A stretch of 24,525 bases of DNA from positions 1 to 24,525 of the forward strand of contig BTUM01000105.1 of assembly GCA_045863235.1 (NCBI GenBank), given 5' to 3'. The notes beneath the pieces are model-generated. The model was not told the origin of the DNA. It saw only the letters and a program-made list of their open reading frames with translations, and searched no databases. The translations under genes were made by a program, and so were the position numbers. This document shows positions 271-18,414 of the stretch, in pieces. Numbering within the stretch: the first letter of the stretch is position 1; each line of letters starts with the position of its first letter. The DNA is from Candidatus Xenobia bacterium. GTDB lineage: Bacteria > Vulcanimicrobiota > Xenobia > Xenobiales > QWHO01.

Positions 271-1011
271 TCAGCCAGGCTTCAGCGCCTCGTGCAGGCG
301 TCCGTTGCTGGCCATGAAGCCACCCCTTGTCAACCTGGCCGGAGCTCCGTCCAGGCGCGTGAAGAGCCCCCCCGCCTCTTGCACGATCAGTCCTCCCGCG
401 GCCACGTCCCAGGGCTGCAGGTCCCACTCCCAGTAACCCTCTAATCGTCCGCAGGCCACCCAGCAGAGGTCCAGTGAGCAGCATCCATTGCGGCGCACTC
501 CGTGACAGAGCGCGTCCAGCCGGCGGAAGCGGTCATACTCCTCATCAGCCGAGGAGCCACCAAAGCCCGTGGCCAGCAGCGCCTCGGAAACAGACTCCAC
601 CTCGCTGACCGTGATGGGCAACTCGTTCAGGAACGCACCCTCGCCAGCGCGGGCCCGAAACAGCTCGCGGCGGAAGACATCGTAGACAACACCCAGCACC
701 ACTTTGTCACCCCTGGCCAGAGCCACCGACACGGCCACCTGGGGAAATCGGTGCACGAAGTTGGTGGTGCCGTCCAGCGGGTCCACCACCCAGCACCACT
801 CATCCTGGCCCCAGCGCCCCCCTTCCTCGCCCCAGAACGAGCAGGTCGGAAGCTCTCGGCGCAACAGTTCTTCAGCCCGCCGGTCGGTGGCCGTGACCAG
901 GCCTTCGGCTCCCTTGGAAGCATACTCGCGCTGGCCTCGTCGGATCAGCGCTCCGGCTCGCCGCACCAGCCGAACGGCCGCGCTTTCGGCGGTAGCCAGG
1001 GTCGTGCGAAT
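271..1011 (-). CDS. suhB: Inositol monophosphatase family protein (SuhB/ImpA-like); start uncertain (GTG 966 in the track, possibly ATT 1011 or CTG 999)
   Basis: Motifs GEEG, WVVDPLDGTTNF, LATGF and WDVAAG. The frame stays open upstream of 966 up to the TAG at 1026-1024 and encodes the expected first helix (AAVRLVRRAGALIR). Confidence 0.9.
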   Translation of the reverse strand: MRTTLATAESAAVRLVRRAGALIRRGQREYASKGAEGLVTATDRRAEELLRRELPTCSFWGEEGGRWGQDEWCWVVDPLDGTTNFVHRFPQVAVSVALARGDKVVLGVVYDVFRRELFRARAGEGAFLNELPITVSEVESVSEALLATGFGGSSADEEYDRFRRLDALCHGVRRNGCCSLDLCWVACGRLEGYWEWDLQPWDVAAGGLIVQEAGGLFTRLDGAPARLTRGGFMASNGRLHEALKPG

Positions 1012-1023
1012 GAGCGTGTCCCC

Positions 1024-1911
1024 CTACAGATCCGCGGCCAGCTCGCGGCGGTAGCAGCAGTCGCTGGCGTGGGTGCGAAAGCCCAGGCTCTGGTAGAGGC
1101 GGCAGGCGGCCTCGTTGCTCGAGCTGACGAACACCGAGGCGGTCAGGGCCCGGCGCCAGGCCAGCTCGTGCAAGGCCCAGGTAACCAGGTAACGACCCAG
1201 GCCGCGCCCTTGCATCGCGGGGGCCACGGCCATTCGGAACAGCTCGCCCTCGGTCTGCAGGGCGTGATGCTTGAGCCACAGATAGCCGATGGCTTGCTCG
1301 TCGAGCCGGGCCAGGCGCAGCAGCGAGGGGTCGAACCAGGGCTCGGCCAGGCGTAGCTGCAGGTCCTCCTCACTCCAGGCCCTCGTCGGATCGGGCTGTA
1401 CCGAGCGGTGCAGGGCCATCCAGGCAGACACGTCCCGAGAGCCATCGAAGGGATCCAGGCGGATCGGACCGGGCTGCAGAGGGGGTAGAGAGTCCAGCGC
1501 TCGCACCAGAAAGAGCAGGCGGCGCAGGGGGGCAAAGCCCAGCGAGCGACTCAGGCGGGCCCCACCCTCGTGGTCTCCGAAGCACCACACGTCCAGGTGG
1601 CTGGCCCCGCGCTCGCGGGCGCCCTGCACGCAAGCGTCCAGGAGGTGCCGGCCCAGGCCCTGGCGCCGGGCTGACGGGTCCACCAGCAGCTCGCCCCAGG
1701 CCCCCTGGCCGGTCAGGTGCAGTTGGGCGTATCCCGACCAGCCCTCGGCCCCGGGAACCCAGCTGGCCCAGGTGTCGCCCGTGCCCTTACGCAGGCGCAG
1801 CAGCAGCTCTTCGGAAAGGCAGCGCGACCGGTCGGCCTGCTGGCAGCGCTCCACCAACCGCTCTAGCTCGACGAGACCCGCACCCGACAGGCGATCGTTC
1901 CAGGTGACCAA
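1024..1911 (-). CDS. mshD: MshD-like tandem GNAT acetyltransferase (mycothiol synthase-like)
   Basis: Two acetyl-CoA motifs (VDPSARRQGLG, VAPAMQGRGLG), C-terminal NEAACRLYQSLGF, and MshD-typical segments ADxxxxLSEELLLRL and EPWFDP...IGYLWLKHH...GE. Confidence 0.75.
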   Translation of the reverse strand: MVTWNDRLSGAGLVELERLVERCQQADRSRCLSEELLLRLRKGTGDTWASWVPGAEGWSGYAQLHLTGQGAWGELLVDPSARRQGLGRHLLDACVQGARERGASHLDVWCFGDHEGGARLSRSLGFAPLRRLLFLVRALDSLPPLQPGPIRLDPFDGSRDVSAWMALHRSVQPDPTRAWSEEDLQLRLAEPWFDPSLLRLARLDEQAIGYLWLKHHALQTEGELFRMAVAPAMQGRGLGRYLVTWALHELAWRRALTASVFVSSSNEAACRLYQSLGFRTHASDCCYRRELAADL

Positions 1912-2042
1912 GAAAAGATGCGGCTCCCTTCCCCGATTTGCCCCCGGAGTTTCTGCCTCGCCGCCCGCCTTCCTTCGATCGTTTCCGGTGCAACCTTGCC
2001 CGCCGTCGCAAACTGAGCAAAACTCAACCGGGGGGCTTGACC

Positions 2043-4211
2043 ATGCGCCGAACGACCATCTGCTGGATCCTGATGCTGGCCTTGCTGACCGGCTGCTCGG
2101 GCGGCGTGTCGGCCTCGGGAGAGGCCGGCACCATTCCGGCCCCCCCCCGGGACCACGAAACGTCAGCCTGCGACTCGAAGTCGGCCTGTCCCGTGAGCTG
2201 ATTCAGGCCAGCGGCGGCCAGATCACCCAGGTTGTGGCGAAGTGGCGGCCCCCAACACCCTCGACCCCGGCACTCTCAGCGGGCGCCGGCTCGTGACTCA
2301 GGGCGCAGCGGAAGTGGGTCCGTCCGACTCCAAGGCCATTGTACTACTCGACGTGACCCCGGGCCTCTGGGAGGTGTACGTCTTCGGTCGCGACGCCGAC
2401 GGCCACGTGGTGGCCCAGGCTCCTTCGAGGCCCCCATCAACTCCGGTACGGTGCTGGTGCGCACAGTCGTGCTCCAGACCGGCTCACAGACCGGCTCGGT
2501 CGTGGTCAACCCCACCAGCGCCAGCGTGATCGTCGGGCAGACTCAAAGCTTTCGGCCCTGGCCCGGCTGGCCGACGGCTCGAGCTCCCCGGTGAGCTGGA
2601 CCAGCTCCAATCCCGCCCGGGAGCGGGGGCAAACGTCAGGCTGACGGCGGTGACGGTCACGTTGGGCGGAAGCACCACCAGGGTGGCCTGGGCCGAATGG
2701 CTGGAGTCGAGCGTCGAGGTGGCCAGGATCTGGACGGTGCCCGGAGCGACTCCGGTGGCAAGAGCGGTGGGGTCCACCGTGGCCCCACCGTGCTCGTCGG
2801 TGACCCGAGCCTGCAGTTCACGGCCACGGCCACCTTCTCCGACGGCACCACCCAGGACGTGACCCCCGTGGCCAGCTACGTCAGCTCGGCGCCGGCCGTG
2901 CTCTCGGTCAACGCGGCCGGTCAGGCCACCGCGCTCAGCGCTGGCAACGCCGCGGTCACGGCCGATTTCCAGGGAGTGACCAGCGCTCCCCTCAACGTGC
3001 TGGTGATCGCTCTGACCACCATCAACCTGACCTTCGCCCCGGCCCCCACCGTGAACGCCTGCAGTTCACCGCCACCGGGATTTTCTCCGATGGCTCCACC
3101 CAGGATCTGACCAACCTGGCCACCTATGCCAGCACCCGGCCTGCCGTGCTCACCGTCAACGCGACCGGCCAGGCCACGGCCCTGACCGCTGGCACCTCGG
3201 ATGTGACGGTGACCTGGGCGTCACCAGCGCCCCGGTCACCGTCACGGTCAGTTCCCCCGTCGCCCGGGTGCTGGTCCTCGACGGCACCAACCTCAATTCC
3301 GTGCTTCTGAACACCACCACCGGGGTGGCCACCCCGGTCCAGACCCTGCCCGTCGTGGGTCCTGCCCCGAGGGATATTTACTCCGACGTGGTCGGCAACC
3401 TGGTCTTCGTGGACCAGGCCGGAACCCAGGTCCAGCCGGTTTCTGTCAGCGCCGGGGCCGGGCTGAGCAGTCTCACGAGCATCTTCGGGTTCGCTGGCGG
3501 CGCCATCATGCCCATGGCCGGTCACAATGGCCGGCTCTACGTCTACGACGATGCCGGTGGCACGCCCGGCCTCAAGCGCTTCGTTTTCGACGGATTGACC
3601 ACGTTCAACCCGGTCGGGGTCACTTTCGGGACGACCCAGACCACGATCAAGTCGCTTCTTCTGGCTCCGCCGGCCACCCTGACGCAGTTCAGCTACGCGC
3701 TGGATGGCGCCGGCGCTCCGACCGGAGCCGTTCCGGGCGCCTTCGGCCCCAGCGCCGTGGTGAACATGGTGCAGCATCCCAATGGCACCTTCCTCATCAT
3801 CGCCAGCAACCTGGACGTTGAAACCGTGGCTACCGCGGGAACCGGCGCGATCGGGGCCACGCTGGACACCGATGTCTACTCGACCGTGGGCGGCGCCAAC
3901 GCCATGGCGCTCACCCCCAACGGCCAGTTCCTCTATGTGGTGACCGATTTTGGCCCTGCCTCCACCGACATCGACGTGTTCAGCGTGACCGCGGGCGGGG
4001 TGATGACCTTTGTCTCCTCGGTCAACGTCGGTGGCGGCTACAATGTCAACGATCTGGCCATCGATCCCGCGGGCCGATTCCTGCTCTATCCCACGGGATC
4101 GGCCTTGAGCAACGGCGTGGAGTTCCGCCCCATCGACCCGACCACGGGCGCCCTGGGCGCGGCCACCCTGATCGCCCTCCCGGGGCCACCCGGCTGGAAA
4201 TTTTGCCCTGA
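2043..4211 (+). pseudogene. Frameshifted lipoprotein with three Big_2-like Ig repeats and a C-terminal beta-propeller (decayed gene or local consensus errors)
   Basis: ATG 2043 with signal peptide and lipobox LLTGC. Ig-like pieces (SWTSSNPA, LQFTATATFSDGTTQDVT, LQFTATGIFSDGSTQDLT) lie in different frames, with about 7 frame switches and one inverted segment. Propeller repeats ALTPNGQFLYV and AIDPAGRFL. A natural-looking end PGATRLEILP* at TGA 4209-4211 is in a shifted frame. Confidence 0.7.
2618..2783 (-). other. Inverted internal segment of the lipoprotein gene
   Basis: The minus strand encodes ATVDPTALATGVAPGTVQILATSTLDSSHSAQATLVVLPPNVTVTAVSLTFAPAP, which fills the gap between plus-strand SWTSSNPA (ends 2617) and PTVLVGDPSLQF (starts 2784). 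Confidence 0.8.
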
Positions 4212-4248
4212 GGTAGGCGGTGGTGTCGCCAGACCGAAGGGGGGGCTG

Positions 4249-5181
4249 GTGTGGACCTGGGGCGATCGACTCGAATCGGTAGATCAGAGCGACTGGGCGC
4301 GGCTTCTCAGGGCCAGCCCTCGGCCCACGCCGTTCCTGGCTCCCAGCTTTCTCTTCCCCTGGAGAGCCGCCTTCGCGCCTGACCGCCCCTTGCGGATCGG
4401 ACGCTACAGCGCCGACGGGGCCGTGCGCGCCTTGCTTTTCCTCTATGACGCGGGGCTTTACGAGGAGTTGCTGGGCGGCCAGGACGTGGCCGATCGGCTG
4501 GACATGCTGGTCGAGCCGGCTTACGAAGAGGCTGCCGTTGGCGCCTTCCTGCAAGAGCCGCGCGAAAAGCCGGTGCGCTTTCCCAACCTGGCCCCGGATG
4601 CGTGCCTCTTTCGCCGGCTCGGCGAGCAGGCCGTCGCCACCCGGACCGACTCCAACCCGGTGCTGGCTCTGCCGCCAAGCTTTGAGGACTACCTTGGGGG
4701 GCTGACCAAGAAGCAACGCCACGAGCTGCGCCGCAAGATGCGCCGGGCCGAACGGCTGGGCGGACCGCTGCGTTTCGTGCTCGACCAGAGCGCCGGCCGC
4801 ATCGACGACTTCCTGCGCCTGCACCGCCTGAGCCATCCCGAAAAGGAACGCTTCATGGATCAGCGCATGGAGGGCTTTTTCCGCGCTCTACTGGGTGGCT
4901 GGGCCGAGGAAGGCAGACTGCGCCTGGCCCTGCTCGAGGGGCGAGGCCAGACCCTGGCGGCCATGCTCCAGGTGGCCGAAGGACGGGTGCTGCACCTCTA
5001 CAACTCGGGCTTCGATCCCGAGCACCGCGAGCTGGCGCCCGGGGTGGTGCTGCTGGGCATGTGCCTGCAGGACGCCATCGCCTCTCGTTACGAGGAATAC
5101 GACCTGCTGCGCGGCACCGAGCGCTACAAGTATGACCTGGGAGGGCAAGACCGCTCCGTCTGGCGACTCGATCTCCTGTGA
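4249..5181 (+). CDS. GNAT-family protein of the CelD/BcsL (Acetyltransf_6, FemAB-like fold) type
   Basis: Motifs LPPSFEDYLGGLTKKQRHELRRKMRR, YNSGFDPEHRELAPGVVL and YDLLRGTERYKY. Probable GTG start at 4249 after AAGGGGGG. Its stop overlaps the next start (GTGA). Confidence 0.85.
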   Translation: MWTWGDRLESVDQSDWARLLRASPRPTPFLAPSFLFPWRAAFAPDRPLRIGRYSADGAVRALLFLYDAGLYEELLGGQDVADRLDMLVEPAYEEAAVGAFLQEPREKPVRFPNLAPDACLFRRLGEQAVATRTDSNPVLALPPSFEDYLGGLTKKQRHELRRKMRRAERLGGPLRFVLDQSAGRIDDFLRLHRLSHPEKERFMDQRMEGFFRALLGGWAEEGRLRLALLEGRGQTLAAMLQVAEGRVLHLYNSGFDPEHRELAPGVVLLGMCLQDAIASRYEEYDLLRGTERYKYDLGGQDRSVWRLDLL

Positions 5182-6209
5182 AGCACCTCTGCCTGAGCTA
5201 CCACACCTGCCCCCTGGAAGAGACCGGCACCGGTCTTGCCGGCGGCATGAACGTCTACCTGCGTGGCTTGCTTCCGGCTCTGGAGGCCGATACGCTGGTG
5301 CTGACCGCCGGCGACCGTTCCGAAGAGCTCGGGTTGGGCAGGGCGCGCATTCTGCGCATCCCTTGCAAGAGCGAGCCCTGGACCCGCGAGCAGGCCTTCC
5401 AGTCCCTGCCCGAGTTCGTGCGCCAGGCCCGAGAGCGTATCTTGGGCCTGACCTTCGAGGCCGTTTCGGCCCACTACTGGATGTCGGCTCTGGCGGCTGA
5501 AGAGCTGGTCCCCGGGCTGAAACCCGTAGTGATGTTCCACTCCCTCGACCCCCGGCGCAACCCCGTGCGGCGGGAAGCCGAGCGACGCATCGCCGCCCGG
5601 GCCGCCAGTGTGGTCTTCTCCTCGGCGCTGGACCGGGCTGTCAGCCAGGCCAGCCTGCCCGAGCTCACCAGGGCCCGGATCATCCGTCCCGGACTCGAGC
5701 CCATCTTTTACCCCCGCAACCAGAGCCAGGCCCGCCAGGCCCTCGGTCTGCCCGACGATGAGACGCTGATCGGCCTGGTGGCCCGGGACGATCCGGCCAA
5801 GAACGCCGCCCTGGCCCGCCAGGTAACCCGTGAGTTGGGCCTGACCCTGATCGAGGTGCCCGGCCCGCGCTGGCCCCAGGGCTTGCCCCACCAGAGCATG
5901 CCCGACTTCTACGCGGCCATGGACCTCGTGCTGGCCATCGCCGACTACGAGACCTTTGGCCTGTCGGTCCTGGAGGCGCTGGCCTCGGGCTGCCGAGTGC
6001 TGGTCTCCGACCGCGGCTACTGGGGTGCCCTGGGCCGTCGCACCGGGGCGGTTCGGGTGACAGCGCTGAAAGACCTGGGCCGTAACCTGCAGCTGGCCCT
6101 GCAGGCGCCTCCCCCCGACCGGGCCCTGCAAAGCTACTTCACCTGGCCCCGCGCCGCCCGGCGCTGGCTTCAGGCCCTGCTCCAAAGTCGCTCGGGAAAA
6201 ACCTTGTAA
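5178..6209 (+). CDS. mshA: MshA-like GT4 glycosyltransferase (D-inositol-3-phosphate GlcNAc transferase-like)
   Basis: HTCPLEETGTGLAGGMNVY (MshA signature HTSP..QPGTGDAGGMNVY), HYWMS, and the GT4 ExFGLxxxEA motif ETFGLSVLEA. It is shorter than typical MshA. Confidence 0.8.
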   Translation: MKHLCLSYHTCPLEETGTGLAGGMNVYLRGLLPALEADTLVLTAGDRSEELGLGRARILRIPCKSEPWTREQAFQSLPEFVRQARERILGLTFEAVSAHYWMSALAAEELVPGLKPVVMFHSLDPRRNPVRREAERRIAARAASVVFSSALDRAVSQASLPELTRARIIRPGLEPIFYPRNQSQARQALGLPDDETLIGLVARDDPAKNAALARQVTRELGLTLIEVPGPRWPQGLPHQSMPDFYAAMDLVLAIADYETFGLSVLEALASGCRVLVSDRGYWGALGRRTGAVRVTALKDLGRNLQLALQAPPPDRALQSYFTWPRAARRWLQALLQSRSGKTL

Positions 6210-6232
6210 CGATTCTGTAACTCTGTTAAAAT
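6204..6232 (+). promoter_or_regulatory. Sigma70-type promoter of the MFS gene
   Basis: TTGTAA (6204-6209), 17-bp spacer, TGnTAAAAT extended -10 (hexamer 6227-6232). The ATG follows 8 nt later with no SD. Confidence 0.65.
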
Positions 6233-6240
6233 CGCCCGCA

Positions 6241-7599
6241 ATGGCCCAGAGGGATGTGCGTCGCGATCTCCGCTACATGACCCTGGAAGGCTCGGCTTTT
6301 TGCATCATGGCCGGGGCAGGCGAAGCCTATTTTCCCGCTTTCGTGCTGGCCCTGGGCCATTCGCAGGTGAGCGCCGGCCTGATCGCCACCCTGCCGCTCT
6401 TTTTGGGCAGCCTGCTGCAGAACCTGTTCCCCCCGCTCTTGCAGCGGGTGGGCTCGCTGCGCAGCTGGATGGTGGGTGCAGTGGCCCTGCAGGCCCTCTT
6501 CCTGATCTTGCTGATCAACTCGGCCGCTTCGCTGCCCCTGATCTTCCTGGCCGTCAGCCTCTACTGGGCGGCCGGCTGGGCCTGCGGACCGGCCTTCAAC
6601 ACCTGGGTCGAGCGCCTGGTGCCCCGCTCCGTGCGGCCCAGGTACTTTGCTCGCCGCACCGCCCTGTGCAACCTGGTGCAGTTCACCAGCATGCTGGCCG
6701 CCGGCTGGCTGCTCAGCCGGGGGGCCCAGTCCGGCCAGGCCCTGCAGGCCTTCACCCTGCTCTTCGGGGTGGCCGCCCTGGCCCGCCTCGCCTCCGCCTT
6801 CTTCCTGTCGCGCCAGACCGACGCCCGGCTGCCCGAAGGACACCGCGTGCTGGGCTTCAGGCAGGCCTTCGAGGTGGTGCGCAAGAGCCCTCAGGGGCGC
6901 ACCCTCTTCTACTTGCTGGGGGCGCAGGCGTCCCTGCAGATGGCCGCTCCCTTCGTCAGCCCCTTCCTGCTCGGCTGCCAGAAGCTGGGCTACTTTGACT
7001 ACATGCTGGTGCTCTCCACGCTGGTGCTGGCGCGCATCCTGGCCCTGCCTCGCCTGGGTGGCCTGGTGCGCCGGGCCGGGCCCCGCAGAATGTTCTACTG
7101 GAGCGGTCTTGGTCTCATTCCCGTGCCCCTCCTGTGGCTGGTTTGCGCTCCCAGCCTGCCCGCCATGCTGGCCCTGCAGGCCTTCACCGGAGTGCTGATG
7201 GCCTGCTACGATCTGGCCGTCATGATGACCTACATGGAAGCCATCCCCGCCACCGAGCGACCCAGCGTGCTGACGCGCTTCTCGGTGGCCCACACCCTGG
7301 CCATGCTGAGCGGCTCGGCCGTGGGCAGCCTGTTGCTCTGGGCTCTGGGCTCGAGCTGGACCGGCTACGCCGTCGTCTTCGGCCTGGCCGTGGTGGCCCG
7401 GGTGGCCGCCTTGCGCCTGCTGGCCATCGTGCCCGTGCCGGCGCCCCGGGTGGAGTTCCTGTCCGTCCCGCCGCGACTTGCGGGCGAGCCGGTGGTGGCT
7501 CGCGGTGCCCTGCTCACGAAGGTGGCCCAGCGCGCCGAGACGCGCGCCCGCGAGGTGGCCCTGACCGAGCTCGAAGTCAAGGCGCCCTCGCGTAACTGA
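6241..7599 (+). CDS. MFS transporter
   Basis: About 12 hydrophobic segments in two halves, with loop motifs WVERLVPRSVRPRYF, LGGLVRRAGPRR and EAIPATERP. Confidence 0.85.
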   Translation: MAQRDVRRDLRYMTLEGSAFCIMAGAGEAYFPAFVLALGHSQVSAGLIATLPLFLGSLLQNLFPPLLQRVGSLRSWMVGAVALQALFLILLINSAASLPLIFLAVSLYWAAGWACGPAFNTWVERLVPRSVRPRYFARRTALCNLVQFTSMLAAGWLLSRGAQSGQALQAFTLLFGVAALARLASAFFLSRQTDARLPEGHRVLGFRQAFEVVRKSPQGRTLFYLLGAQASLQMAAPFVSPFLLGCQKLGYFDYMLVLSTLVLARILALPRLGGLVRRAGPRRMFYWSGLGLIPVPLLWLVCAPSLPAMLALQAFTGVLMACYDLAVMMTYMEAIPATERPSVLTRFSVAHTLAMLSGSAVGSLLLWALGSSWTGYAVVFGLAVVARVAALRLLAIVPVPAPRVEFLSVPPRLAGEPVVARGALLTKVAQRAETRAREVALTELEVKAPSRN

Positions 7600-7604
7600 C
7601 GCTC

Positions 7605-8789
7605 ATGGCCCGTCTGCTCGTGCTGATGGGGTCGGGCGAGACCACCCCCACGATGACCTCCACCCACCGCGAGGTGCTCGCCCGCGTGGGCGGCCCGGCC
7701 GTGCTGCTGGATACGCCTTATGGCTTTCAGGAGAATGCCGAGAAAATTTCCGCCCGGGCCGTCCTGTATTTCGAGCGCAGTTGCGAGACGCGGCTCGAGG
7801 TGGCCCGCTGGCACGGCGAGGCCTCACCCCTCGATCGGGAGACCGCCCTGACCCTGGCCCGCGACGCCTCCTTCCTCTTCTCGGGTCCCGGTAGCCCCAG
7901 TTACGCCCTGCGCCAATGGCAGCAGACCGAGATGGCCGCCATTCTGGCCGAGAAGCTCTCCCGCCCTGGAGCCCTGGTCTTCGCCAGCGCTGCCGCCTGC
8001 ACGCTGGGCTCGCGGGCGGTGCCGGTGTACGAGATCTACAAGTGCGGGGCGGAGCCCCACTGGCTTCCCGGCCTGGACCTGCTCACCCCGCTGGGTTTCC
8101 CGGCCGTGGTGGTGCCCCACTGGAACATCCAGGTGGGGGAGGACCACGACACGCGCTACTGCATGCTGGGCGAGCGCCGCCTGCAGCTGATGGAGGCCGA
8201 GCTGCCCGAGGACCAGTTCCTGCTCGGCCTGGACGAGCACACCGCCCTGGTGCTCGACCTGGACACTCTGACCGGCCAGGTCACCGGCAAGGGGGCCGTG
8301 GTGGTGCGCCAGCGGGGTGTGACCACCACCTTCCCGGCCGGACGTCCCTTCCGGCTGGGCGAGCTTTGCGATGGCCCGGCTCCACCGGCTCTGGCCGCTG
8401 AACCCCCCCGGGCCCAGCCCCTGGTGCAGGAGGTGGATCGCCTCGAGCAGGCCATCCGCGCCGCTCTGGAGCAGCGCGACAGCCAGCAGGCCGTGGCCTC
8501 CGCCCTGGAGCTGGAGAGCTTGCTGGCCGAGTGGTCCCACGATACCGACGCGGCCAGCCTCAAGCGCGCCCGGGCCGCCCTGCGCTCAACCCTGGTGCAG
8601 CTCGGCCAGGCCGCCCGCACCGCCGGCGAGCTGCTCGAGCCGGTGGTGGAAGCCATGCTGACCTTGCGCCGCCAGGCCCGCTCGCGTCAGGAGTGGCGCG
8701 AGGCCGACGCCATCCGCGCCGAGCTCGCCCGGGCCGGCATCCAGGTGCACGACACCCCCGAGGGCACCCGCTGGGAGCTCGCTGGTTGA
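7605..8789 (+). CDS. Cyanophycinase/peptidase S51-like (class I GATase fold) protein fused to a CysRS C-terminal helical domain
   Basis: LVLMGSGE, GPGSP, nucleophile elbow FASAAA, VVPHWN and GLDEHTAL. The C-terminus LRRQARSRQEWREADAIRAELARAGIQVHDTPEGTRW resembles the end of CysS. No HIGH or KMSKS motifs. Confidence 0.75.
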   Translation: MARLLVLMGSGETTPTMTSTHREVLARVGGPAVLLDTPYGFQENAEKISARAVLYFERSCETRLEVARWHGEASPLDRETALTLARDASFLFSGPGSPSYALRQWQQTEMAAILAEKLSRPGALVFASAAACTLGSRAVPVYEIYKCGAEPHWLPGLDLLTPLGFPAVVVPHWNIQVGEDHDTRYCMLGERRLQLMEAELPEDQFLLGLDEHTALVLDLDTLTGQVTGKGAVVVRQRGVTTTFPAGRPFRLGELCDGPAPPALAAEPPRAQPLVQEVDRLEQAIRAALEQRDSQQAVASALELESLLAEWSHDTDAASLKRARAALRSTLVQLGQAARTAGELLEPVVEAMLTLRRQARSRQEWREADAIRAELARAGIQVHDTPEGTRWELAG

Positions 8790-8831: not shown

Positions 8832-8887
8832 GGGCTCGGGATAAGGCCAGGTAGGATGGAGCTATGACGAGCAGGGAGGTCAAAGTC

Positions 8888-9169
8888 ATGAGCTGGAGCC
8901 ACTATGAGGAGGCTCTGGAAGAACTTCGCGAGCAGCAACGAGAAGACTTTCTGCTGGTCATGGTCGCCATGGCCACCACGCGCGATGCCCTGGCTCGCAC
9001 TCAGGAGAGCCTCGAGCAGGTGGAGGCAGGTCTGGTCCGTCACCAGAAGCACAACGAGATGCGCCTGGAGCTGATCGAGCGGGCGGCCCGCTCGGAGTCT
9101 TCCGCGGTAAACTCGCGTCTTGACCGCATCGAGGAGCGGCTCGACCGGCTCGAGCACCCGGCCGCCTGA
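8888..9169 (+). CDS. Small coiled-coil hypothetical protein, paralog 1
   Basis: GGGAGG upstream of ATG 8888. Aligns end to end with 9538..9813. Confidence 0.75.
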   Translation: MSWSHYEEALEELREQQREDFLLVMVAMATTRDALARTQESLEQVEAGLVRHQKHNEMRLELIERAARSESSAVNSRLDRIEERLDRLEHPAA

Positions 9170-9537: not shown

Positions 9538-9813
9538 ATGAGTCGTTGGAGCCATTACGAGAGCGCCCTGCAAGAGGTTCGCGAGCAACAGACCGAGGAC
9601 TTCCGGCTGGTCATGGTGGCCCTGGCCACTACTCGCGACGCGGTGACGTCTGGCCTGGAGCGCGTCCAGGCGGGTTTGGAGAGGCACCAGCAGCACAACC
9701 AGAGACGACTCGAGCTGCTCGAGCAGGCCGCCCGCGCCGAAGCCGAGGAGGTCACCCTGCGCCTCGACCGCATCGAGGAGCGACTCGACCGGCTCGAGCC
9801 CCCGGCCGCCTGA
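9538..9813 (+). CDS. Small coiled-coil hypothetical protein, paralog 2
   Basis: AAGGAG SD and upstream TGnTATACT. Shares WSHYExAL, EDFxLVMVAxATTRDA and RLDRIEERLDRLExPAA with paralog 1. Confidence 0.8.
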   Translation: MSRWSHYESALQEVREQQTEDFRLVMVALATTRDAVTSGLERVQAGLERHQQHNQRRLELLEQAARAEAEEVTLRLDRIEERLDRLEPPAA

Positions 9814-10543: not shown

Positions 10544-13500
10544 ATGCAACGCCGCCTGAGCGCGCTCTACCTCATTTTGATGTTCCTGACAGCCTGCGGG
10601 CCCGTGCCCCAGGGCGGGCCCGGGAGCGCGGCCACCAAATGGCCCGAGGGCAAGCCCCGCCCGCTGGAGGTGACCTTCGCCTCTCCGATCGGCGAGGTGG
10701 AGAGCCCCGATGACGCGGCTGCCATCCTGGTGGGCTTCAACCAGCCCATGACGGCGCTTCAGCCCCTTCCCACCGAGCGGGCCATCGGACCTTTGACGCT
10801 GACCCCCGCGGTCAACGGGAAGTTCCGCTGGAAGGGTACGGCCACGCTGGTCTTCACGCCCGACAAGCCGCTACCGCTGGCGACCAGGTTCAAGGCCACG
10901 GTGCCGGCCGGCACCCCCTCGGCCCAGGGCCCCAAGCTCGAGAAAGACTATGTCTTCGAGTTCGAGACGCCCCGACCGCGAATGGTCAAGTCCGAGCCCG
11001 CCGATGAAGCCAGGTGGGTGCCGCTCAACCAGGTGTTCCTGCTCGAGTTCAACCAGCCGATGAACGCGGCCAAGCTGACCGGTCAGCTCGGTCTGGTGAG
11101 CGCCCTCAAGGACAACGCTGTCAAGAGCATCGAGCTCGACGTTCGCGAGCCCGATGCCAAGGAGCTCGAGCGCTTCTTCGGCCCCGAGCCCGATGAGGCC
11201 ACCAAAGAGCGTTTCAACCGCCTGGTGGCGGCTGTTCCCAAGCAGCCCATGGACACCGGCAAGGCCTATCGCCTGGTCCTCAAGAAGGACCTGATGGCCG
11301 CAAGCGGCGAGCTCGGCTCGGCCGACGAGCAGGCCTTCACCTTCTCCACCGTCAACCGCTTCGAGTTCACCCAGCTGCGCGAGGCGGGCAAAACGGTTTC
11401 GCCCTACGAGTCGCTCAGCTTCAACTTCTCCAACCCGGTCAGCTATGCCGAGTTGGCCAGGAACCTCACCATCGAGCCGGCGGTCAAGATCCCCGAGAGC
11501 TATCTCGAGGACCGCGATTATGCTTCGGAAGACCTCTACTTCTATCTTCGCATGGCCCCCCGAACCAGCTACAAGGTGCGCATCGGCGAAGGCCTCAAGG
11601 ACCAGTTCGGCAACACCCTGGGCAAGGCCACAGAGCTCACCTTCAAGACCGGCGACTATCCGAGCGGCGTGCGTATGCCTGAGGGCACCGCCGTGCTCGA
11701 GACCGGCACCCCCGACCCCCGAATTCCCATCGGCATGATGAACGTCAAGCAGGCCGAGCTGAGGGTGGCCGTTCTTCCGCCCGACCAGCTGATCAGGGCA
11801 GTCGGCAGCCTCAGCGACTACAAGCCCCCCGGTGGCTACAAGCTCACCCGCAAGCTCACCCCCAACGATAAGCCCAACGTGCTCCAGGATCGCTACTTCA
11901 AGGTGGCCGACGTCCTGGGCAAGAACGGCTCGGGCTGGCTCTTCATCACCCTCGAGAACGGCAAGTACGACCGCAACCTGCTCGTCCAGGTGACCAACCT
12001 GGGCCTGACCGCCAAATTCTCGCCCGAGAACACCGTGGTTTGGGCCACCGCGCTGGACACCGGCAAACCGTTGCCGGGCACCGCCCTCGAGATCCGCGAC
12101 GAGAAGGGCAATGTGCTGGGAAGCGCCACCACCGGAGCCGATGGGACCGCCAGCTTCAAAGGTTGGCACACCTTCGGGCTCAAGCAGGAGGACCGCTGGA
12201 GCCAGCCCACCCTCTACATCTACGGCCGCTCGGGCAACCAGGTGGCCTTCATCGGCAGCCGTTGGAACTGGCAGATCGACCCCTGGAGCTTCGATCTGGC
12301 CTACGACTACTCGCCCGAAGTGCCCGAACGACGCGGCATGGCCTTCAGCGAGCGAGGTCTCTATCGGGCCGGCGAAGAGGTTTACATGAAGGGCGCTCTG
12401 CGCGAACTGGTCAACGGCAGTTACCAGATTCCCGAGCTGAAGCAGCTCGACTTCAAGCTGATGGACTCGCGCGATCAGCTGGTGAAGCTGGGCGTTGTCG
12501 ACCTGGGCAGCTTCGGCTCCTTCGACCACACTCTGAAGCTGGCCAGGAACTCGCCCACCGGTTACTACAGCATCTACTACTATCTTCCGGGGGAGGCCCG
12601 CAAGAGCCTCAAGAACGGCGATGCCTCGCCCCTGTTCGTCGACTCGTTCCGGGTGGAGGCCTTCCGTCCGGCTCAGTTTGAAGTCAAGGTAAACGTCAAG
12701 GAGCCTGTTTACGCCTTTGGCGACAAGCTGCAGGCCGAATTGCTCGGTCGCTACCTCTTCGGCGGCCTGATGAAGGGCGACGCCGTGGAGTGGACGGTGC
12801 GAGCCGAGCCCCACAGCTTCCAGCCCGAGGGTTGGGACGGTTGGGACTTCGGTCCTCTCAGCTGGCTCGACTCGGATGACGAGCAGCCCGAAGAGGCCAA
12901 GACCCTGCTCAAGGGCAGCGGCAAGCTCGACGACCAGGGCCAGAAGAAGCTCGAGGCCGACCTGGCCCTCAAGTACCGCGGAACGGCCGCCGTCACCGTG
13001 GAGGGCACGGTTACCTCGGCCTCCCGCCAGCAAATCAGCGGACGGGCCACCGTGCTGGTGCATCCGGGCAACTGGCTGATCGGCCTGCGGCCCAAGAGCT
13101 CGTTCTTGAGCTCTGGGGCTCCGGCCGGCATCGATGTGGTGACGGTCACCTCGGAGGGCAAGAACCTGGGCGGTCAGAAGGTCAACCTGGAGCTCTTCCG
13201 GCGCCAGTGGCATTCGGTGCGCCGGGCTGAGACCGGGGGGTCGTATCGCTGGGTGGTCACCACTGAGGATCAGAAGGTGGGAGAGCCCATCGTGGTTACC
13301 AGCCAGGATTCGGCCGTGCTGGCCAACCTCAACCCCGACAAGTCCGGCTTCTACGTCGTGAAGGCCTGGGGCGAGGACAGCAAGGGCCGCAAAATCGAGA
13401 CCCAGACCACCTTCTACGCCAGCGGATCGGACTACGTGGCCTGGGCCCGGGGCGAGAACGATCAGGTCGAGCTGGTGGCCGACAAGAAGAGCTACAAGCC

Positions 13501-16183
13501 CGGCGAAACGGCCCGCATCCTGGTCAAGTCCCCCTATGAGGACTGCCAGGCCCTGGTCACCGTCGAGCGCGAGCTCATCATGCGCCGGTTCGTGGTCGAG
13601 CTGAAGGGCAGCACCCCCACCATCGAGGTGCCCCTCAAGTCTGAGGATCTCCCCAACGCCTTCATCTCGGTGGTGCTGGTGGAGGGCCGCCTCACCGACA
13701 AGGGCTTCGACGAGCAGGGCGAGGACCTGGGCAAGCCGTCCTTCCGGATCGGCTACGTCAACCTCCCGGTCGACACCGGCGAGAAGCACCTCTCGGTCAG
13801 CGTCAAGACCGACCGAGAGGAGTATCAGCCCCGCCAGACCGTCACCATCAACCTCGAGGTCAAGGACTCCCAGGGACGCCCGGTCCAGGCCGAGGTAGAC
13901 GTGGCCGTGGTCGATCGGGGTGTGCTCAACCTGATCGACTACCAGACCCCTGACTTCTTTGCCCCGTTCTATGGCCCGCGCTCTTTGCGCGTGGTCACGG
14001 CCGAGATGCGACGCGACGTGATCGGTCTTCGCAGCTACGGAGTCAAGGGAGATCCCGAAGGCGGCGGCGGGGCCGGCGTTCCCGGCGAGACCCGCGAGGA
14101 TTTCGGGGCCACGCCTTACTGGAACCCCCGCGTGCTCACCGACTCTCAGGGCAAGGCCACGGTCACCTTCGAGCTGCCCGACAGCCTGACGTCCTTCCGG
14201 GTCATGGCCACCGCTCTCACCAAGGCATCCGACTTCGGAGCCTCCGACTGCGAGCTGCGGGTCAACAAGCCCCTCCAGATGCTGCCTTCGATCCCGCGCT
14301 TCGTGCGCATCGAGGACCGCTTCCAGGCCGGGGTGCTGGTGCACAACAACACCAAGACCTCGGGCAGCGTCGAGGTCTCGGTGCAGGCCGAGGGCGTCGA
14401 TCTGGCGGGCGAGGGCAAAGCCACCGTCAGCGTGCCGGCGGGCGAGGAGAAGGAAGTCATGTTCGACTTCCTGGCCAAGCGGCCGGCCGATGCCAGGCTG
14501 ACCTTCCAGGCGAAGATGGACATCCACCAGGACGGTCTGGCCCTGCCCTTGCCGGTACTTTTGCCCGTGGCCACCGAGACGGTCGCCGACTCGGGCGATA
14601 CCGACCAGGGCCAGGTCAAGATTCCGCTGGGATTGACCTCCAGGCCGGCGCCCGGAGTGGGCGGCCTGACCATCACTCTCTCGCCCTCTATCCTGTCCGG
14701 GCTGAGCGGGGCGCTGGAGTACATCAGCAAGTACCCTTACGGGTGCCTCGAGCAGCGGCTGACGCGCCTGGCGCCTAACTTCCTGTTCCCCGATCTCCTC
14801 AAGGCCTACGCCGAGGGCGATCGCAAGAAGGCTCGCACCCTGGTGCAGGCCAGTCTGGACGAGCTGCGCGGCTTCCAGGCCCCCAGTGGGGGCATGTGGC
14901 TCTGGCCCGAGAGCGACTGGGTCAACGATTATCTCTCGGTCTATGCGCTCGACATGCTCAATCGGGCCAAGGACGACGGCTACGAGGTCGACAAGCGCCT
15001 TCTGACCGACCTGCGCGGCTACGTCAAGAAGGTTCCCAACGCCCAGAAGTTCGACTACCCCTATTCCAAGGCCGAGGAGTTCGTGGTGCGCTCGTATGCT
15101 GTCAGCGTGCTCGCTCGCCTGGGAGTCAAGGACCGGGGCGCCTTCGACGTGCTCTACGCCGACCGCAAGGACGCCCCCCTGGAAGCTCGCGTCTACCTGC
15201 TGCAGGCCTCGCGTCGCATGGGCGTGGGCAAGGAGAAGGTGGCCACGTTGCGCAACGAGCTGACCTCGCGCGTGCGCATGGAGGCCGACTCGGCTTACTT
15301 CCAGGAGAAAGACCAGGAGTCGCTGGGCTGGGTCTACGGCTCCAACCTGCGCCTGACGGCCCAGATCCTGAACGTGCTGCTCGAGGAGGAGAGCCCGCCC
15401 GACTTCGCGCCCAAGGTGGTCAAGTATTTGATGAGCGTGCAGAAGAACGGACACTGGGGCAACACCCAGGAAGACCTGGCCGTGCTGACGGCGCTCGACC
15501 TGTATCGCGAAAAGTTCGAGAAGGGCTCGCCCAACTTCAAGGCCATGGCCAAGATCGACGCAAAGTCGGTGCTGGAGAGGAGCTTCTCGGGCACCGCTCC
15601 GCAGGTGGCCAACGTCAAGATTCCCATGACCGACCTGCCGGTGGGCAAGGTGAATGTCGACCTGACCAGGAGCGGTGAGGGCCGCCTCTACTACACCCTG
15701 CGCCTGCAGTACGCCCCGGCCGAGGACGTGCCGGCGCGCGACGAGGGCTTCATGGTACTCAAGCAGGTAGTCAACGTCGAAACCAACACCGTGGATCCGG
15801 TGCTTAAAGCCGGTAAGATCTATAAGGTCACCGTCTCGGTGATCACCCCGCAAGAGCGCCGGTTCGTGGTGCTCGACGATCCTCTGCCGGGCGGGTTGGA
15901 GGTTGTGCAGACCACCTTCGAGACCGAGTCCGACAGCATGCGCCGGGTTCTCGAGCTGGGCTCGAACGACCGCCGGTGGGGCGGCACGTTCGACCACTTC
16001 GAGGTGCATGACGACCGCGTGCTGCTCTTTGCCCAGCAGCTCAACCCCGGCGAGCACACCTTCGAGTACCTGGTGCGGGCGGGTTATCCCGGCAAGTATG
16101 ACCAGCCGGCCACCAAGTGCGAGGAGATGTACGAGCCCGAGGTGTTCGGCACCACGGCCCGCCAGGCGGTCGAGGTCCGCTGA
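10544..16183 (+). CDS. Bacterial alpha-2-macroglobulin lipoprotein with N-terminal Ig-like domains
   Basis: Signal peptide with lipobox LTAC from ATG 10544, MG-domain motifs (ERGLYRAGEEV, DKKSYKPGETA, LPDSLTSFRVMA), intact thioester YPYGCLEQ and C-terminal EEMYEPEVFG. Confidence 0.95.
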   Translation: MQRRLSALYLILMFLTACGPVPQGGPGSAATKWPEGKPRPLEVTFASPIGEVESPDDAAAILVGFNQPMTALQPLPTERAIGPLTLTPAVNGKFRWKGTATLVFTPDKPLPLATRFKATVPAGTPSAQGPKLEKDYVFEFETPRPRMVKSEPADEARWVPLNQVFLLEFNQPMNAAKLTGQLGLVSALKDNAVKSIELDVREPDAKELERFFGPEPDEATKERFNRLVAAVPKQPMDTGKAYRLVLKKDLMAASGELGSADEQAFTFSTVNRFEFTQLREAGKTVSPYESLSFNFSNPVSYAELARNLTIEPAVKIPESYLEDRDYASEDLYFYLRMAPRTSYKVRIGEGLKDQFGNTLGKATELTFKTGDYPSGVRMPEGTAVLETGTPDPRIPIGMMNVKQAELRVAVLPPDQLIRAVGSLSDYKPPGGYKLTRKLTPNDKPNVLQDRYFKVADVLGKNGSGWLFITLENGKYDRNLLVQVTNLGLTAKFSPENTVVWATALDTGKPLPGTALEIRDEKGNVLGSATTGADGTASFKGWHTFGLKQEDRWSQPTLYIYGRSGNQVAFIGSRWNWQIDPWSFDLAYDYSPEVPERRGMAFSERGLYRAGEEVYMKGALRELVNGSYQIPELKQLDFKLMDSRDQLVKLGVVDLGSFGSFDHTLKLARNSPTGYYSIYYYLPGEARKSLKNGDASPLFVDSFRVEAFRPAQFEVKVNVKEPVYAFGDKLQAELLGRYLFGGLMKGDAVEWTVRAEPHSFQPEGWDGWDFGPLSWLDSDDEQPEEAKTLLKGSGKLDDQGQKKLEADLALKYRGTAAVTVEGTVTSASRQQISGRATVLVHPGNWLIGLRPKSSFLSSGAPAGIDVVTVTSEGKNLGGQKVNLELFRRQWHSVRRAETGGSYRWVVTTEDQKVGEPIVVTSQDSAVLANLNPDKSGFYVVKAWGEDSKGRKIETQTTFYASGSDYVAWARGENDQVELVADKKSYKPGETARILVKSPYEDCQALVTVERELIMRRFVVELKGSTPTIEVPLKSEDLPNAFISVVLVEGRLTDKGFDEQGEDLGKPSFRIGYVNLPVDTGEKHLSVSVKTDREEYQPRQTVTINLEVKDSQGRPVQAEVDVAVVDRGVLNLIDYQTPDFFAPFYGPRSLRVVTAEMRRDVIGLRSYGVKGDPEGGGGAGVPGETREDFGATPYWNPRVLTDSQGKATVTFELPDSLTSFRVMATALTKASDFGASDCELRVNKPLQMLPSIPRFVRIEDRFQAGVLVHNNTKTSGSVEVSVQAEGVDLAGEGKATVSVPAGEEKEVMFDFLAKRPADARLTFQAKMDIHQDGLALPLPVLLPVATETVADSGDTDQGQVKIPLGLTSRPAPGVGGLTITLSPSILSGLSGALEYISKYPYGCLEQRLTRLAPNFLFPDLLKAYAEGDRKKARTLVQASLDELRGFQAPSGGMWLWPESDWVNDYLSVYALDMLNRAKDDGYEVDKRLLTDLRGYVKKVPNAQKFDYPYSKAEEFVVRSYAVSVLARLGVKDRGAFDVLYADRKDAPLEARVYLLQASRRMGVGKEKVATLRNELTSRVRMEADSAYFQEKDQESLGWVYGSNLRLTAQILNVLLEEESPPDFAPKVVKYLMSVQKNGHWGNTQEDLAVLTALDLYREKFEKGSPNFKAMAKIDAKSVLERSFSGTAPQVANVKIPMTDLPVGKVNVDLTRSGEGRLYYTLRLQYAPAEDVPARDEGFMVLKQVVNVETNTVDPVLKAGKIYKVTVSVITPQERRFVVLDDPLPGGLEVVQTTFETESDSMRRVLELGSNDRRWGGTFDHFEVHDDRVLLFAQQLNPGEHTFEYLVRAGYPGKYDQPATKCEEMYEPEVFGTTARQAVEVR

Positions 16184-18414
16184 AACGCCTCCGGCTCGGC
16201 CGCCGGGCGCGTTGGGCCCTGGGCCTGGTGGCCCTGGCCGCTGTGGTGTTCTTTCTCTGGCCCGTGCCCGAGGCCATCCGCCATCCGGCCCCGGCCGGCT
16301 CGGTGCAGCTGACCGATCGCCACGGCCTGCCCCTGCGTGAGGTGCTCGGCCCCGAGCACATCTCCAGCCATGCCATCAGCCTGGATCAGGTCTCGCCCTA
16401 CCTGATCCGGGCCACCCTGGTCAGCGAGGACCGGCGGTTCTACTACCATCCCGGGGTGGATCCCCTGGCCGTGCTGCGGGCCGTGTGGCTGGATGTTCAG
16501 AGCGGCGAACTGGTCTCGGGTGGATCCACCCTGACCCAACAGCTGGTGCGCAACCTGGTCGACATCGGCCCGCGCGGTTGGCGCTCGAAGCTGCGAGAGG
16601 CCTTCTACGCCCTGCGCCTGGAGGCCAACCTCAGCAAGGCCCAGATTCTCGAGCTCTACCTCAACCGGGTGCCCTACGGCAACCAGGCGCTGGGGGCCGA
16701 AGCCGCCGCCCAGCTTTACTTCGAACGCCCCGCGCTGGCCCTCTCGCCCGCCCAGGCGGCCTTCCTGGCCGTGCTGCCGCGCGCTCCCGGCCATTACAAC
16801 CCCTACGTCAACCTCGAGGAGATCCTGCCTCTGCAGAAGGACCTGCTGCACCGCATGGAGCTCACCCCCGAGGAGCTCAGGCTGGCCCTGGAGGAGCCCA
16901 TCGAACCAGCCTTTCCCGAAGGCGCCTTCCGGGCTTCCCACTTCTGCGACTTCGTGACCTCGGAAGGCTTGCCGCCGGGGCCGGTGACGCGCACCACACT
17001 GGACTGGCCCCTGCAAGAAGAGGTGGAGCTCATGCTGCGAGCCCACCTGGCCCGCCTCCAGCCCCAGCAGGTAACCAACGGCGCGGTGCTGGTGCTCTCG
17101 GTGGAGACGGGCGAGGTGCTGGCCATGGCTGGCTCGGTGGACTACGCTCAGGGCCAGGTGAACGCCGCTCTGGCCCTGCGCCAGCCCGGCTCCTCTCTCA
17201 AGCCCTTCACCTACGCCCTGGCCCTGGAGCGGGGTTTCAGTCCGGCCAGCCTGGTCAGCGACATCGAGACGGGCTCGCTGGAGGACCGCTACCTGCCCGA
17301 CAATTACGACCGCAAGTTCCACGGCCCGGTGCGGCTGCGCGAGGCCCTGGCCTGCTCCTACAACGTCAGCGCCGTGCGGGTACTGCACGAGGTAGGGGTG
17401 GATGCCCTGCTCTTGCGCCTGCGCGAGCTGGGCTTCGTGGAGCTGACCGAGGCTCCCGATCACTACGGGCTGGGCCTGACCCTGGGTGACGGCGAGGTGA
17501 CCTTGCTCGAACTGGCCCAGGCCTATCGCTGTCTGGCCCGGGGCGGGCTGTTCGCCCCCTCGCTCACCTTGCTCGACCAGCCCGTCCCGGCTGACCGGCG
17601 CGTGTTCGACCCCGTGACCGCCTACCTGATCACCAGCATCCTGTCCGACAAGAACGCTCGCGTGAACGCCTTCGGAGCCGACTCGGTGCTCAACTTGCCC
17701 TTCCCCTGCGCCGCCAAGACGGGCACCTCCAAGGCCTACCGCGACAACTGGACGGTGGGCTACACGAAAGGCTACGTCGTGGCGGTCTGGGTGGGCAACT
17801 TCGACGCCGACCCCATGGTGGACGTGTCCGGCATCACCGGCGCCGGCCCGCTCTTTGCGGACGTCATGCTGGCCCTGCATCGGCGCGGTCCGGCCGAAGC
17901 CTTCGCGGCTTTCCCCGAGCCCCCCGGGGTCACCCGCCAGATCGTCTGCACAGCCTCGGGCGAGCGTCCCGGCCCGAGCTGCCCCCACCGCATGGAGGAA
18001 CTCTTCGCCCCGGGCACCGAGCCGTCCGAGGATTGCAGCGTGCACCGCCAGCCCGGCTACGAGGTCTATCGGCCCGAGTTCCAGCCCTGGATGGAGGACC
18101 GCGGCCTGCCCCGACCGCCTCCAGCCCCGCAACTGGAAGGCAAGGTGCGCATCGTCTTCCCCGAGGACGGCGACTTCTTTCGCCTCGACCCACTGTTGCG
18201 CGGCGAGTATCAGAGCCTCCGGCTGCGGGCCGTGGTGCCCGAGGGCTGCCGCAGCCTGACCTTCATCGTGGACGGAAAGCGCCTCGATGAGGTGACCGGC
18301 CCCTTCAGCCAGCGCTGGCAGCTCTCACCGGGCACCCACCGACTGGAGGCCGAAGCCCTCGGAGCCGGTGGAGCCCGGCTGCGCAGCAGCCCGGTGACCA
18401 TCACCGTCCGCTGA
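16180..18414 (+). CDS. pbpC: Penicillin-binding protein 1C (start uncertain; CTG 16180 overlapping the a2M stop proposed)
   Basis: Transglycosylase motifs EDRRF, GGSTLTQQL and LELYLN; transpeptidase motifs SSLK, SYN and KTGT; C-terminal beta domain. Canonical position after the a2M gene. Confidence 0.92.
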   Translation: MKRLRLGRRARWALGLVALAAVVFFLWPVPEAIRHPAPAGSVQLTDRHGLPLREVLGPEHISSHAISLDQVSPYLIRATLVSEDRRFYYHPGVDPLAVLRAVWLDVQSGELVSGGSTLTQQLVRNLVDIGPRGWRSKLREAFYALRLEANLSKAQILELYLNRVPYGNQALGAEAAAQLYFERPALALSPAQAAFLAVLPRAPGHYNPYVNLEEILPLQKDLLHRMELTPEELRLALEEPIEPAFPEGAFRASHFCDFVTSEGLPPGPVTRTTLDWPLQEEVELMLRAHLARLQPQQVTNGAVLVLSVETGEVLAMAGSVDYAQGQVNAALALRQPGSSLKPFTYALALERGFSPASLVSDIETGSLEDRYLPDNYDRKFHGPVRLREALACSYNVSAVRVLHEVGVDALLLRLRELGFVELTEAPDHYGLGLTLGDGEVTLLELAQAYRCLARGGLFAPSLTLLDQPVPADRRVFDPVTAYLITSILSDKNARVNAFGADSVLNLPFPCAAKTGTSKAYRDNWTVGYTKGYVVAVWVGNFDADPMVDVSGITGAGPLFADVMLALHRRGPAEAFAAFPEPPGVTRQIVCTASGERPGPSCPHRMEELFAPGTEPSEDCSVHRQPGYEVYRPEFQPWMEDRGLPRPPPAPQLEGKVRIVFPEDGDFFRLDPLLRGEYQSLRLRAVVPEGCRSLTFIVDGKRLDEVTGPFSQRWQLSPGTHRLEAEALGAGGARLRSSPVTITVR

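Follow-up and report, generated by a model that had tools for sequence, protein, structure and literature searches.

The 24,525-nucleotide stretch analysed here (contig BTUM01000105.1 of Candidatus Xenobia bacterium; hereafter the window) carries at positions 271-8789 a cluster of six genes that likely directs the synthesis of mycothiol or a close analogue. Mycothiol is N-acetyl-cysteinyl-glucosaminyl-inositol, and its cysteine ligase MshC is a paralogue of cysteinyl-tRNA synthetase (CysRS) without the anticodon domain. With our confidence about evenly divided, we propose that the cysteine thiol of the product would be installed by an MshC-independent route, likely from Cys-tRNA, through a GNAT-family protein with a predicted Fem-type fold. 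This proposal, with every substrate and product in it and cysteine as the amino acid, is drawn from gene content, linkage, predicted fold, motifs and distribution. The six genes are as follows.

271-966 or to 1011, minus strand: inositol monophosphatase (IMPase) family protein, candidate MshA2-type phosphatase (PF00459, 209.8 bits)
1024-1911, minus strand: MshD-like tandem GNAT acetyltransferase (TIGR03448, 158 bits against a cut-off of 163.1)
4249-5181, plus strand: double-GNAT protein of the Acetyltransf_6 family, FemX-like in predicted fold and proposed to be an aminoacyl-tRNA-dependent ligase (AlphaFold2 (AF2) model and Foldseek)
5178-6209, plus strand: divergent glycosyltransferase of family 4 (GT4), MshA/sucrose-phosphate synthase (SPS) type (TIGR03449, 52.9 bits against a cut-off of 462.5)
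6241-7599, plus strand: major facilitator superfamily (MFS) transporter (PF07690)
7605-8789, plus strand: peptidase-S51/cyanophycinase-like serine hydrolase with a CysRS anticodon-binding module, 394 aa (PF23493 and fold matches)

All six open reading frames (ORFs) lie where an initial annotation, made from the sequence alone, had grouped them. The IMPase gene has its first common start codon, GTG, at 966. At 1011 the window and the related genome G002 read ATT, whereas G001 reads ATG. The GT4 start and the stop codon of the Fem-type GNAT gene overlap by 4 bases.

Proposed route

Ino1, whose gene is on contig C7 in the host and within the cluster in seven relatives, would form inositol-1-phosphate, to which the GT4 would add N-acetylglucosamine. 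The IMPase would take off the phosphate and an unlinked deacetylase would free the sugar amine. The Fem-type GNAT would then transfer cysteine from Cys-tRNA to this amine in place of MshC, and the MshD-like GNAT would acetylate the amino acid. The MFS protein may be an accessory for export. The S51/CysRS-anticodon protein is treated as an accessory to the route, with a possible part in turnover or quality control on tRNA-Cys. These steps map one by one onto the mycothiol route as outlined in PMC6178380, with MshC replaced; MshC is described as tRNA-independent in PMC2922099. According to a survey (bioRxiv 10.1101/173617), complete mshA-D sets occur only in Actinobacteria.

The cluster shares with the Actinomycetota mycothiol pathway (Ino1, MshA, MshA2, plus MshB, MshC and MshD) the Ino1 step, MshA-type motifs in the GT4, a phosphatase candidate and an MshD-like protein with the catalytic Glu and Tyr. 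The mycothiol-like product of the initial annotation is supported. In contrast to the actinobacterial pathway, the host here belongs to Vulcanimicrobiota, the genes are clustered, the GT4 scores far below the MshA cut-off, neither MshB nor MshC was found, and a Fem-fold GNAT, an MFS transporter and an S51/CysRS fusion are additional.

A wider proposal, which we hold slightly less firmly, is that a Fem-fold enzyme builds a low-molecular-weight thiol from Cys-tRNA, so that Vulcanimicrobiota, Rokubacteria, bacteria akin to Deferrimicrobiaceae and many Chloroflexota would have a tRNA-dependent route to mycothiol-type thiols, and that a tRNA-Cys-anticodon-reading hydrolase serves the same route in the host order, possibly as deacetylase or in tRNA-Cys quality control. 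In the host locus, which lies in a phylum other than Chloroflexota, the genes form one block that includes an MshD-like gene, an IMPase gene and the gene of a predicted tRNA-Cys-reading protein. If the Fem-type enzyme uses Cys-tRNA, thiol synthesis would here employ a cysteine-ligase chemistry that is new. The proposal, if true, would also link redox buffering with the pool used in translation, assign a function to one subfamily of Acetyltransf_6 ('CelD/BcsL') and account for genomes with mshA yet without mshC. A literature search that left most subscription journals and all bioRxiv supplements uncovered turned up neither a published Fem-type or tRNA-dependent route to mycothiol nor a thiol assignment for these phyla.

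Host and conservation of the cluster

The host genome, to which the window belongs as contig C105, measures 8.36 Mb and has a completeness of 97.6%. Among named homologues of the GT4, that of bacterium CPR1 is closest (89%). G035, a relative from the same order (locus L120), is labelled as Vulcanimicrobiota. The host phylum is Vulcanimicrobiota, in agreement with the earlier suggestion that the host is not an actinobacterium.

Strong GT4 matches were detected in 12 of the 41 relatives searched, and the S51/CysRS protein is present in exactly the same 12. Thus, the clustering exceeds chance. In 10/11 fetched relatives, a stretch of 19 kb holds the full set of six genes, although inversions and insertions change the gene order; the contig of the eleventh ends early. 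The GT4, MFS and S51/CysRS genes stay together in all 11 loci, accompanied in 10 by those for the GNAT, the IMPase and the MshD-like protein. The initial annotation had read the genes as one pathway cluster, and this co-occurrence in relatives agrees with it.

As annotated, ino1 is not in the window. The gene was found on C7 of the host genome (PF01658, 127 bits). Ino1 was detected in 11 of the 12 cluster genomes, compared with 5 of 29 other genomes, and ino1 is within the cluster in all seven family-f2 genomes, which bears out the supposed link to inositol. Across the phylum, the Fem-type GNAT has strong matches in 10 of 151 genomes, all from the same order, and two weak ones besides.

Two further genes were observed directly upstream of ino1 in clusters of relatives. 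One (L046:11068-11910, in G011) encodes a GINT1_N/GH43-like protein (PF24793, E 3e-39); GINT1_N is a domain of glucosamine-inositol transferases. The other, in family-f2 clusters (L045:3320-3529 and equivalents), is a conserved ORF of ~69 aa without a Pfam family.

Fem-type GNAT

The AF2 model of the GNAT at 4249-5181 (predicted local distance difference test score 95.4) was compared with known structures. The best Foldseek matches were FemX, Sba18 and Sbb17 (E 5e-13 to 8e-13), whereas MshD gave E 1e-6. By structure comparison, Fem-type enzymes scored Z 21.4-19.6 and MshD Z 14.6. The top nine chains of a wide structure search (Z 17.1-21.4) were FemX, FemA and Sbb17, enzymes of the MprF type and a single uncharacterised protein; eight of the nine are aminoacyl-tRNA-using transferases, whereas acetyl-CoA tandem GNATs reached at most Z 15.9. 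The Sbb17 and Sba18 matches include complexes with the aminosugar streptothrisamine, and Orf11 of the same family is a Gly-tRNA-dependent aminosugar acylase (PMC12945691). The GNAT is thus predicted to have a double-GNAT Fem fold.

The basic helix 154-171 and the Y293-K294 pair are invariant in 45/45 aligned sequences, as are R157, R162 and K163 individually. In FemX, a basic helix serves the tRNA, and F304 and K305 are required, according to PMC12945691 and PMC4964394; the equivalence of the Y293-K294 pair to F304-K305 is proposed from position. The acetyl-CoA motif A was not found in the window GNAT and occurs in 2 of the 45 aligned rows. The predicted fold and the lack of an acetyl-CoA motif are shared with FemX/FemAB, Orf11, Sba18 and Sbb17, as the basic helix and the aromatic-Lys pair near the C-terminus may be. 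In contrast, identity to these proteins is 10-19%, and PDB sequence searches with the GNAT were empty, with no match to Fem proteins found at the sequence level. The predicted acceptor, glucosaminyl-inositol, and donor, Cys-tRNA, were not found described for the Fem family in the source text available.

The initial annotation had listed a "second GNAT". The family assignment stands, whereas an ordinary second acetyltransferase does not fit the FemX/aminosugar-acylase-like predicted fold (Z about 20). An MshD-like gene with the catalytic residues is also in the window, so acetylation does not call for the Fem-type GNAT.

Among 80 metagenome Fem loci, the best of 305 that were confirmed, the GT4 gene is directly downstream of the GNAT gene in 63 of the 68 that have room for it. 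These 80 loci contain ino1 (25), PIG-L (3), MshD-like (2), IMPase (2) and MFS (1) genes. Some of them carry, upstream of the Fem gene, a 193-aa ORF that looks lipoprotein-like rather than like a deacetylase. The named homologues are from Deferrimicrobiaceae, Syntrophorhabdaceae and Rokubacteria, and other loci were assigned to these groups by similarity.

GT4 glycosyltransferase and MshD-like acetyltransferase

The GT4 keeps the MshA-type motifs HTxP, GGMN, HYW and ExFG...E together with H121, R203, K208, E258 and E266, which presumably correspond in role to the active-site residues of MshA. GGMN and HYW stand in place of the SPS-type GGQ/GGQN, and the protein did not group with SPS-like rows. 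The catalytic roles of the His and Glu residues were taken from SPS, as given in PMC7264703. To judge from these motifs, the GT4 may act like MshA.

Among Fem-adjacent GT4 proteins with a readable motif, 75 of 76 distinct sequences have HxCP, whereas canonical MshA has HTSP. HxCP also occurs in 4 of 20 GT4 proteins from MshC-type Chloroflexota. The Cys is possibly a specificity or redox residue.

For the MshD-like GNAT, the best PDB sequence match is mycothiol synthase (2c27, E 3.6e-20). Two of its residues, E223 and Y273, are invariant in 10/10 aligned sequences and correspond in the alignment to E234 and Y294 of MshD, for which catalytic roles are known (PMC4964394). The HPEQ segment has diverged, and the family-f2 orthologues score only 66-69 bits on TIGR03448. 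With the host protein just under the cut-off and the catalytic Glu and Tyr kept, its earlier naming as an MshD-like acetyltransferase is upheld.

Complementary distribution of Fem-type and MshC-like genes

No MshA, MshB or MshC over cut-off was found anywhere in the host genome, which extends to the genome the annotated absence of mshB and mshC from the window. The best MshB score was 44.6 against 224.35 (TIGR03445), and the only TIGR03447 match was the full-length housekeeping CysRS. The four cluster-bearing relatives tested likewise have only full-length CysRS.

In Chloroflexota (121 genomes), 49 matches to the GNAT were obtained, 43 of them with at least 170 bits, and the six weak ones were counted negative or fell outside the set of 88 genomes with mshA-like genes. 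Of these 88, 33 have the Fem-type gene only, 46 an MshC-like gene only, six both and three neither. The two genes are nearly mutually exclusive. We scored 13-19 candidates per genome and classed the CysRS-type proteins by the tail after KMSKS (at least 190 aa, CysRS; at most 160 aa, MshC-like). The MshC-like calls comprise 36 made by sequence and 17 by score alone. The top CysRS-type matches were confirmed as CysRS for 15 Fem-positive genomes, and those of four more, G078, G114, G134 and G150, were judged by frame length. The Fisher p value of 1e-14 was not used because kin genomes are not independent.

The short MshC-type CysRS paralogues of many Chloroflexota all score below the TIGR03447 cut-off. 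Therefore, mycothiol-type capacity outside Actinomycetes is probably under-called. Such short paralogues (L265-L275, L292-L315) are common in Chloroflexota, as checked by sequence, and apparently in Acidimicrobiia, by score, where they also stay below the cut-off. In the Rokubacteria genome G042, which also has the Fem-GT4 pair, the MshC-like gene (L372, C142) is split into two ORFs, by decay or assembly error. The idea that genomes with both a Fem-type and an MshC-like gene hold two mshA genes was rejected; the second copies are EHASP/GGQN paralogues.

Deacetylase candidates and comparison with bacillithiol

The host genome has four PIG-L genes, all unlinked to the cluster, whose products might stand in for MshB. 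In Chloroflexota, a PIG-L deacetylase gene lies within the same 16 kb in 10/19 fetched Fem loci, usually in the order GNAT>GT4>PIG-L. One host PIG-L protein scores as BshB1 (199.7 against 182.5; L048:7228-7917 on C68 of the host genome, G000). Its gene adjoins a GT2 gene. As the general deacetylase of the cluster this candidate was rejected, since of the four relatives tested G004 alone gave a close orthologue.

The bacillithiol system (BshA, BshB, BshC) follows a similar logic, namely a cysteinyl-glucosamine glycoside and a cysteine ligase unrelated to MshC. The host shares with it the unlinked BshB1-scoring deacetylase. In contrast, the cluster has inositol genes, not malate, and neither BshC nor a glutathione synthetase domain was found in the host genome; BshC was over cut-off in none of five genomes. 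BshA was not found among 8 scanned of the 26 GT4 proteins of the genome, nor is the window GT4 a BshA.

S51/CysRS-anticodon protein

The initial annotation had listed this protein by a CysRS-type domain. As an MshC in the usual sense it was rejected. The CysRS similarity is confined to the C-terminal anticodon-binding module (PF23493), there is no catalytic synthetase or ligase domain, and the protein co-occurs with MshC-like genes. The S51 domain matches 6nqc, PepE and cyanophycinase in fold, and S128, H172 and D210 are invariant in 38/38 sequences. Profile positions ~265-410 match CysRS residues ~315-462 with E down to 1e-19. R359, W364, D368 and R371 align to R427, W432, D436 and R439 of E. 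coli CysRS, the four anticodon-domain residues targeted in PMC13449415. Thus, fold, invariant Ser/His and anticodon-contact residues are shared with family S51 and CysRS, whereas the fusion itself, without an aminoacylation domain, is uncharacterised.

The family is large (7,879 matches among 8,000 scored) and mostly actinobacterial and from Chloroflexota. Among 80 fetched loci (L051-L130; gene called in 70), an alpha/beta hydrolase gene precedes the S51/CysRS gene in 42, conserved across Actinomycetota, Chloroflexota and Rokubacteria. Outside the host order the gene is not beside msh genes; of these loci L120 alone, the one from Vulcanimicrobiota, carries the cluster. Co-inheritance with the cluster in 12/41 relatives points modestly to a part for tRNA-Cys. 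A predicted complex of the Fem-type GNAT and the S51 protein scored 0.00, which is evidence neither way.

Evidence against the proposed route

Several observations weigh against mycothiol made from Cys-tRNA. With regard to the GT4, the TIGR03449 score is about 410 bits short of the cut-off, and PDB matches place the sequence slightly nearer SPS (6kih, 43 bits) than MshA (3c4q, 38 bits). In a FastTree tree, it joins Deferrimicrobiaceae/Syntrophorhabdaceae-type proteins in a separate long-branch clade (support 100) outside canonical MshA, with a tentative placement. The "MshA-like GT4" of the initial annotation thus stands as to its motifs and not as to the canonical clade or the cut-off.

With regard to deacetylation, no linked deacetylase was found in the clusters of 11/11 relatives. 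The host genome has no orthologue of the PIG-L of the Chloroflexota operons (best 78 bits, compared with 284-372), and no PIG-L orthologue common to all five cluster-bearing Vulcanimicrobiota tested was found. With regard to cysteine, the Fem-fold enzymes described in the available source text use Gly, Ala, Leu, Phe or Ser, and none of them Cys. The mycothiol-dependent MDMPI family was not found in G000, G004, G007 and G134, and the S51/CysRS gene is in 0/80 metagenome Fem loci.

The distribution data have their own limits. Fem-type and MshC-like genes occur together in six Chloroflexota and in Rokubacteria G042, the mshA-like set includes at least one paralogue (G093), and the exclusion may stem from a few class-level events. 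Counts among kin genomes are not independent. MshD-like genes are present in 14/121 Chloroflexota, five of them over cut-off. From this rarity, acetylation is not general to the Fem route.

Alternative products

Another amino acid: The same backbone and tRNA-dependent step could carry Gly, Ala or Ser. The product would then be an aminoacyl-glucosaminyl-inositol with no thiol, for instance a compatible solute or a compound for storage. We regard this as unlikely, but as the best of the alternatives. Ala- or Gly-tRNA serves the enzymes with the nearest solved folds (PMC12945691, PMC4964394), no MDMPI enzyme was found, and six genomes retain both ligase types. These points are opposed by a distribution that nearly excludes the cysteine-specific MshC-like ligase, by the linked MshD-like gene and by the co-inherited tRNA-Cys-reading module.

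Another sugar or acceptor: In the Vulcanimicrobiota/Deferrimicrobiaceae-type branch, the GT4 could use another sugar or acceptor with no deacetylation, and the Fem enzyme would attach an amino acid to a glycosyl-inositol, perhaps through a hydroxyl, in making a compound for export or for the envelope. The separate long GT4 clade, the scarcity of PIG-L in metagenome loci (3/80), the linked MFS gene and the slightly higher SPS match agree with this. However, the GT4 keeps GGMN/HTxP/HYW rather than SPS-type GGQN, its Fem partner is of the same family as that beside PIG-L in Chloroflexota, and the genome does have four unlinked PIG-L genes. This reading appears improbable.

S51/CysRS protein as core enzyme: This protein, the sole linked hydrolase, could be the missing deacetylase, or a serine transacylase moving cysteine from tRNA-Cys to the sugar. 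It marks the same 12/41 relatives as the cluster and keeps catalytic and anticodon-reading residues. Its neighbour outside the host order is, however, an alpha/beta hydrolase gene (the 42/80 loci) and not an msh gene, near-full-length copies occur in only 9/121 Chloroflexota, and among Acidimicrobiia-class genomes (61 searched) the 11 that have a full-length copy all show an MshC-like match too. We consider a core role somewhat less probable still.

The least probable reading, an acyl-CoA- or carrier-dependent Acetyltransf_6 acyltransferase making an acylated inositol glycoside unrelated to thiols, would suit the CelD/BcsL source annotations and the absence of a sequence-level Fem match, fold likeness alone being no proof of function, but it is countered by the near absence of motif A (2/45 rows), the invariant basic helix and Y-K pair, the structural ranking in favour of aminoacyl-tRNA users and the distribution complementary to MshC-like genes.

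Genes within and beside the cluster

The minus-strand and plus-strand arms of the cluster are separated by a gene outside the pathway.

2043-4248, plus strand: broken Ig-like (Big_2) and lactonase-type beta-propeller gene (Pfam)

This gene is fragmented in G001, a remnant in G002 and absent in G004, and shows strain-to-strain indel differences in public runs. It is of the lipoprotein type, and related genes are on contigs C7 and C128. An ORF at 3268-5181 would fuse the propeller to the Fem-type GNAT. We rejected this fusion as a real architecture; it reflects a one-base difference in a decaying gene. The in-frame read-through is due to a single base near 4181 that the window lacks and that G001 and the public RNA run X7 both have (X7 as contigs only, giving no gauge of expression). 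The window form without this base is common to three DNA runs from three studies, one of which is possibly the source sample.

Downstream of the cluster, an alpha-2-macroglobulin gene and then pbpC (TIGR02073, over cut-off) lie at 10544-18414. The macroglobulin gene also adjoins the cluster in G001, G002 and G004. Two similar coiled-coil ORFs of ~90-100 aa without a Pfam family are at 8864-9169 and 9538-9813, and their counterpart is single copy in G001-G003.

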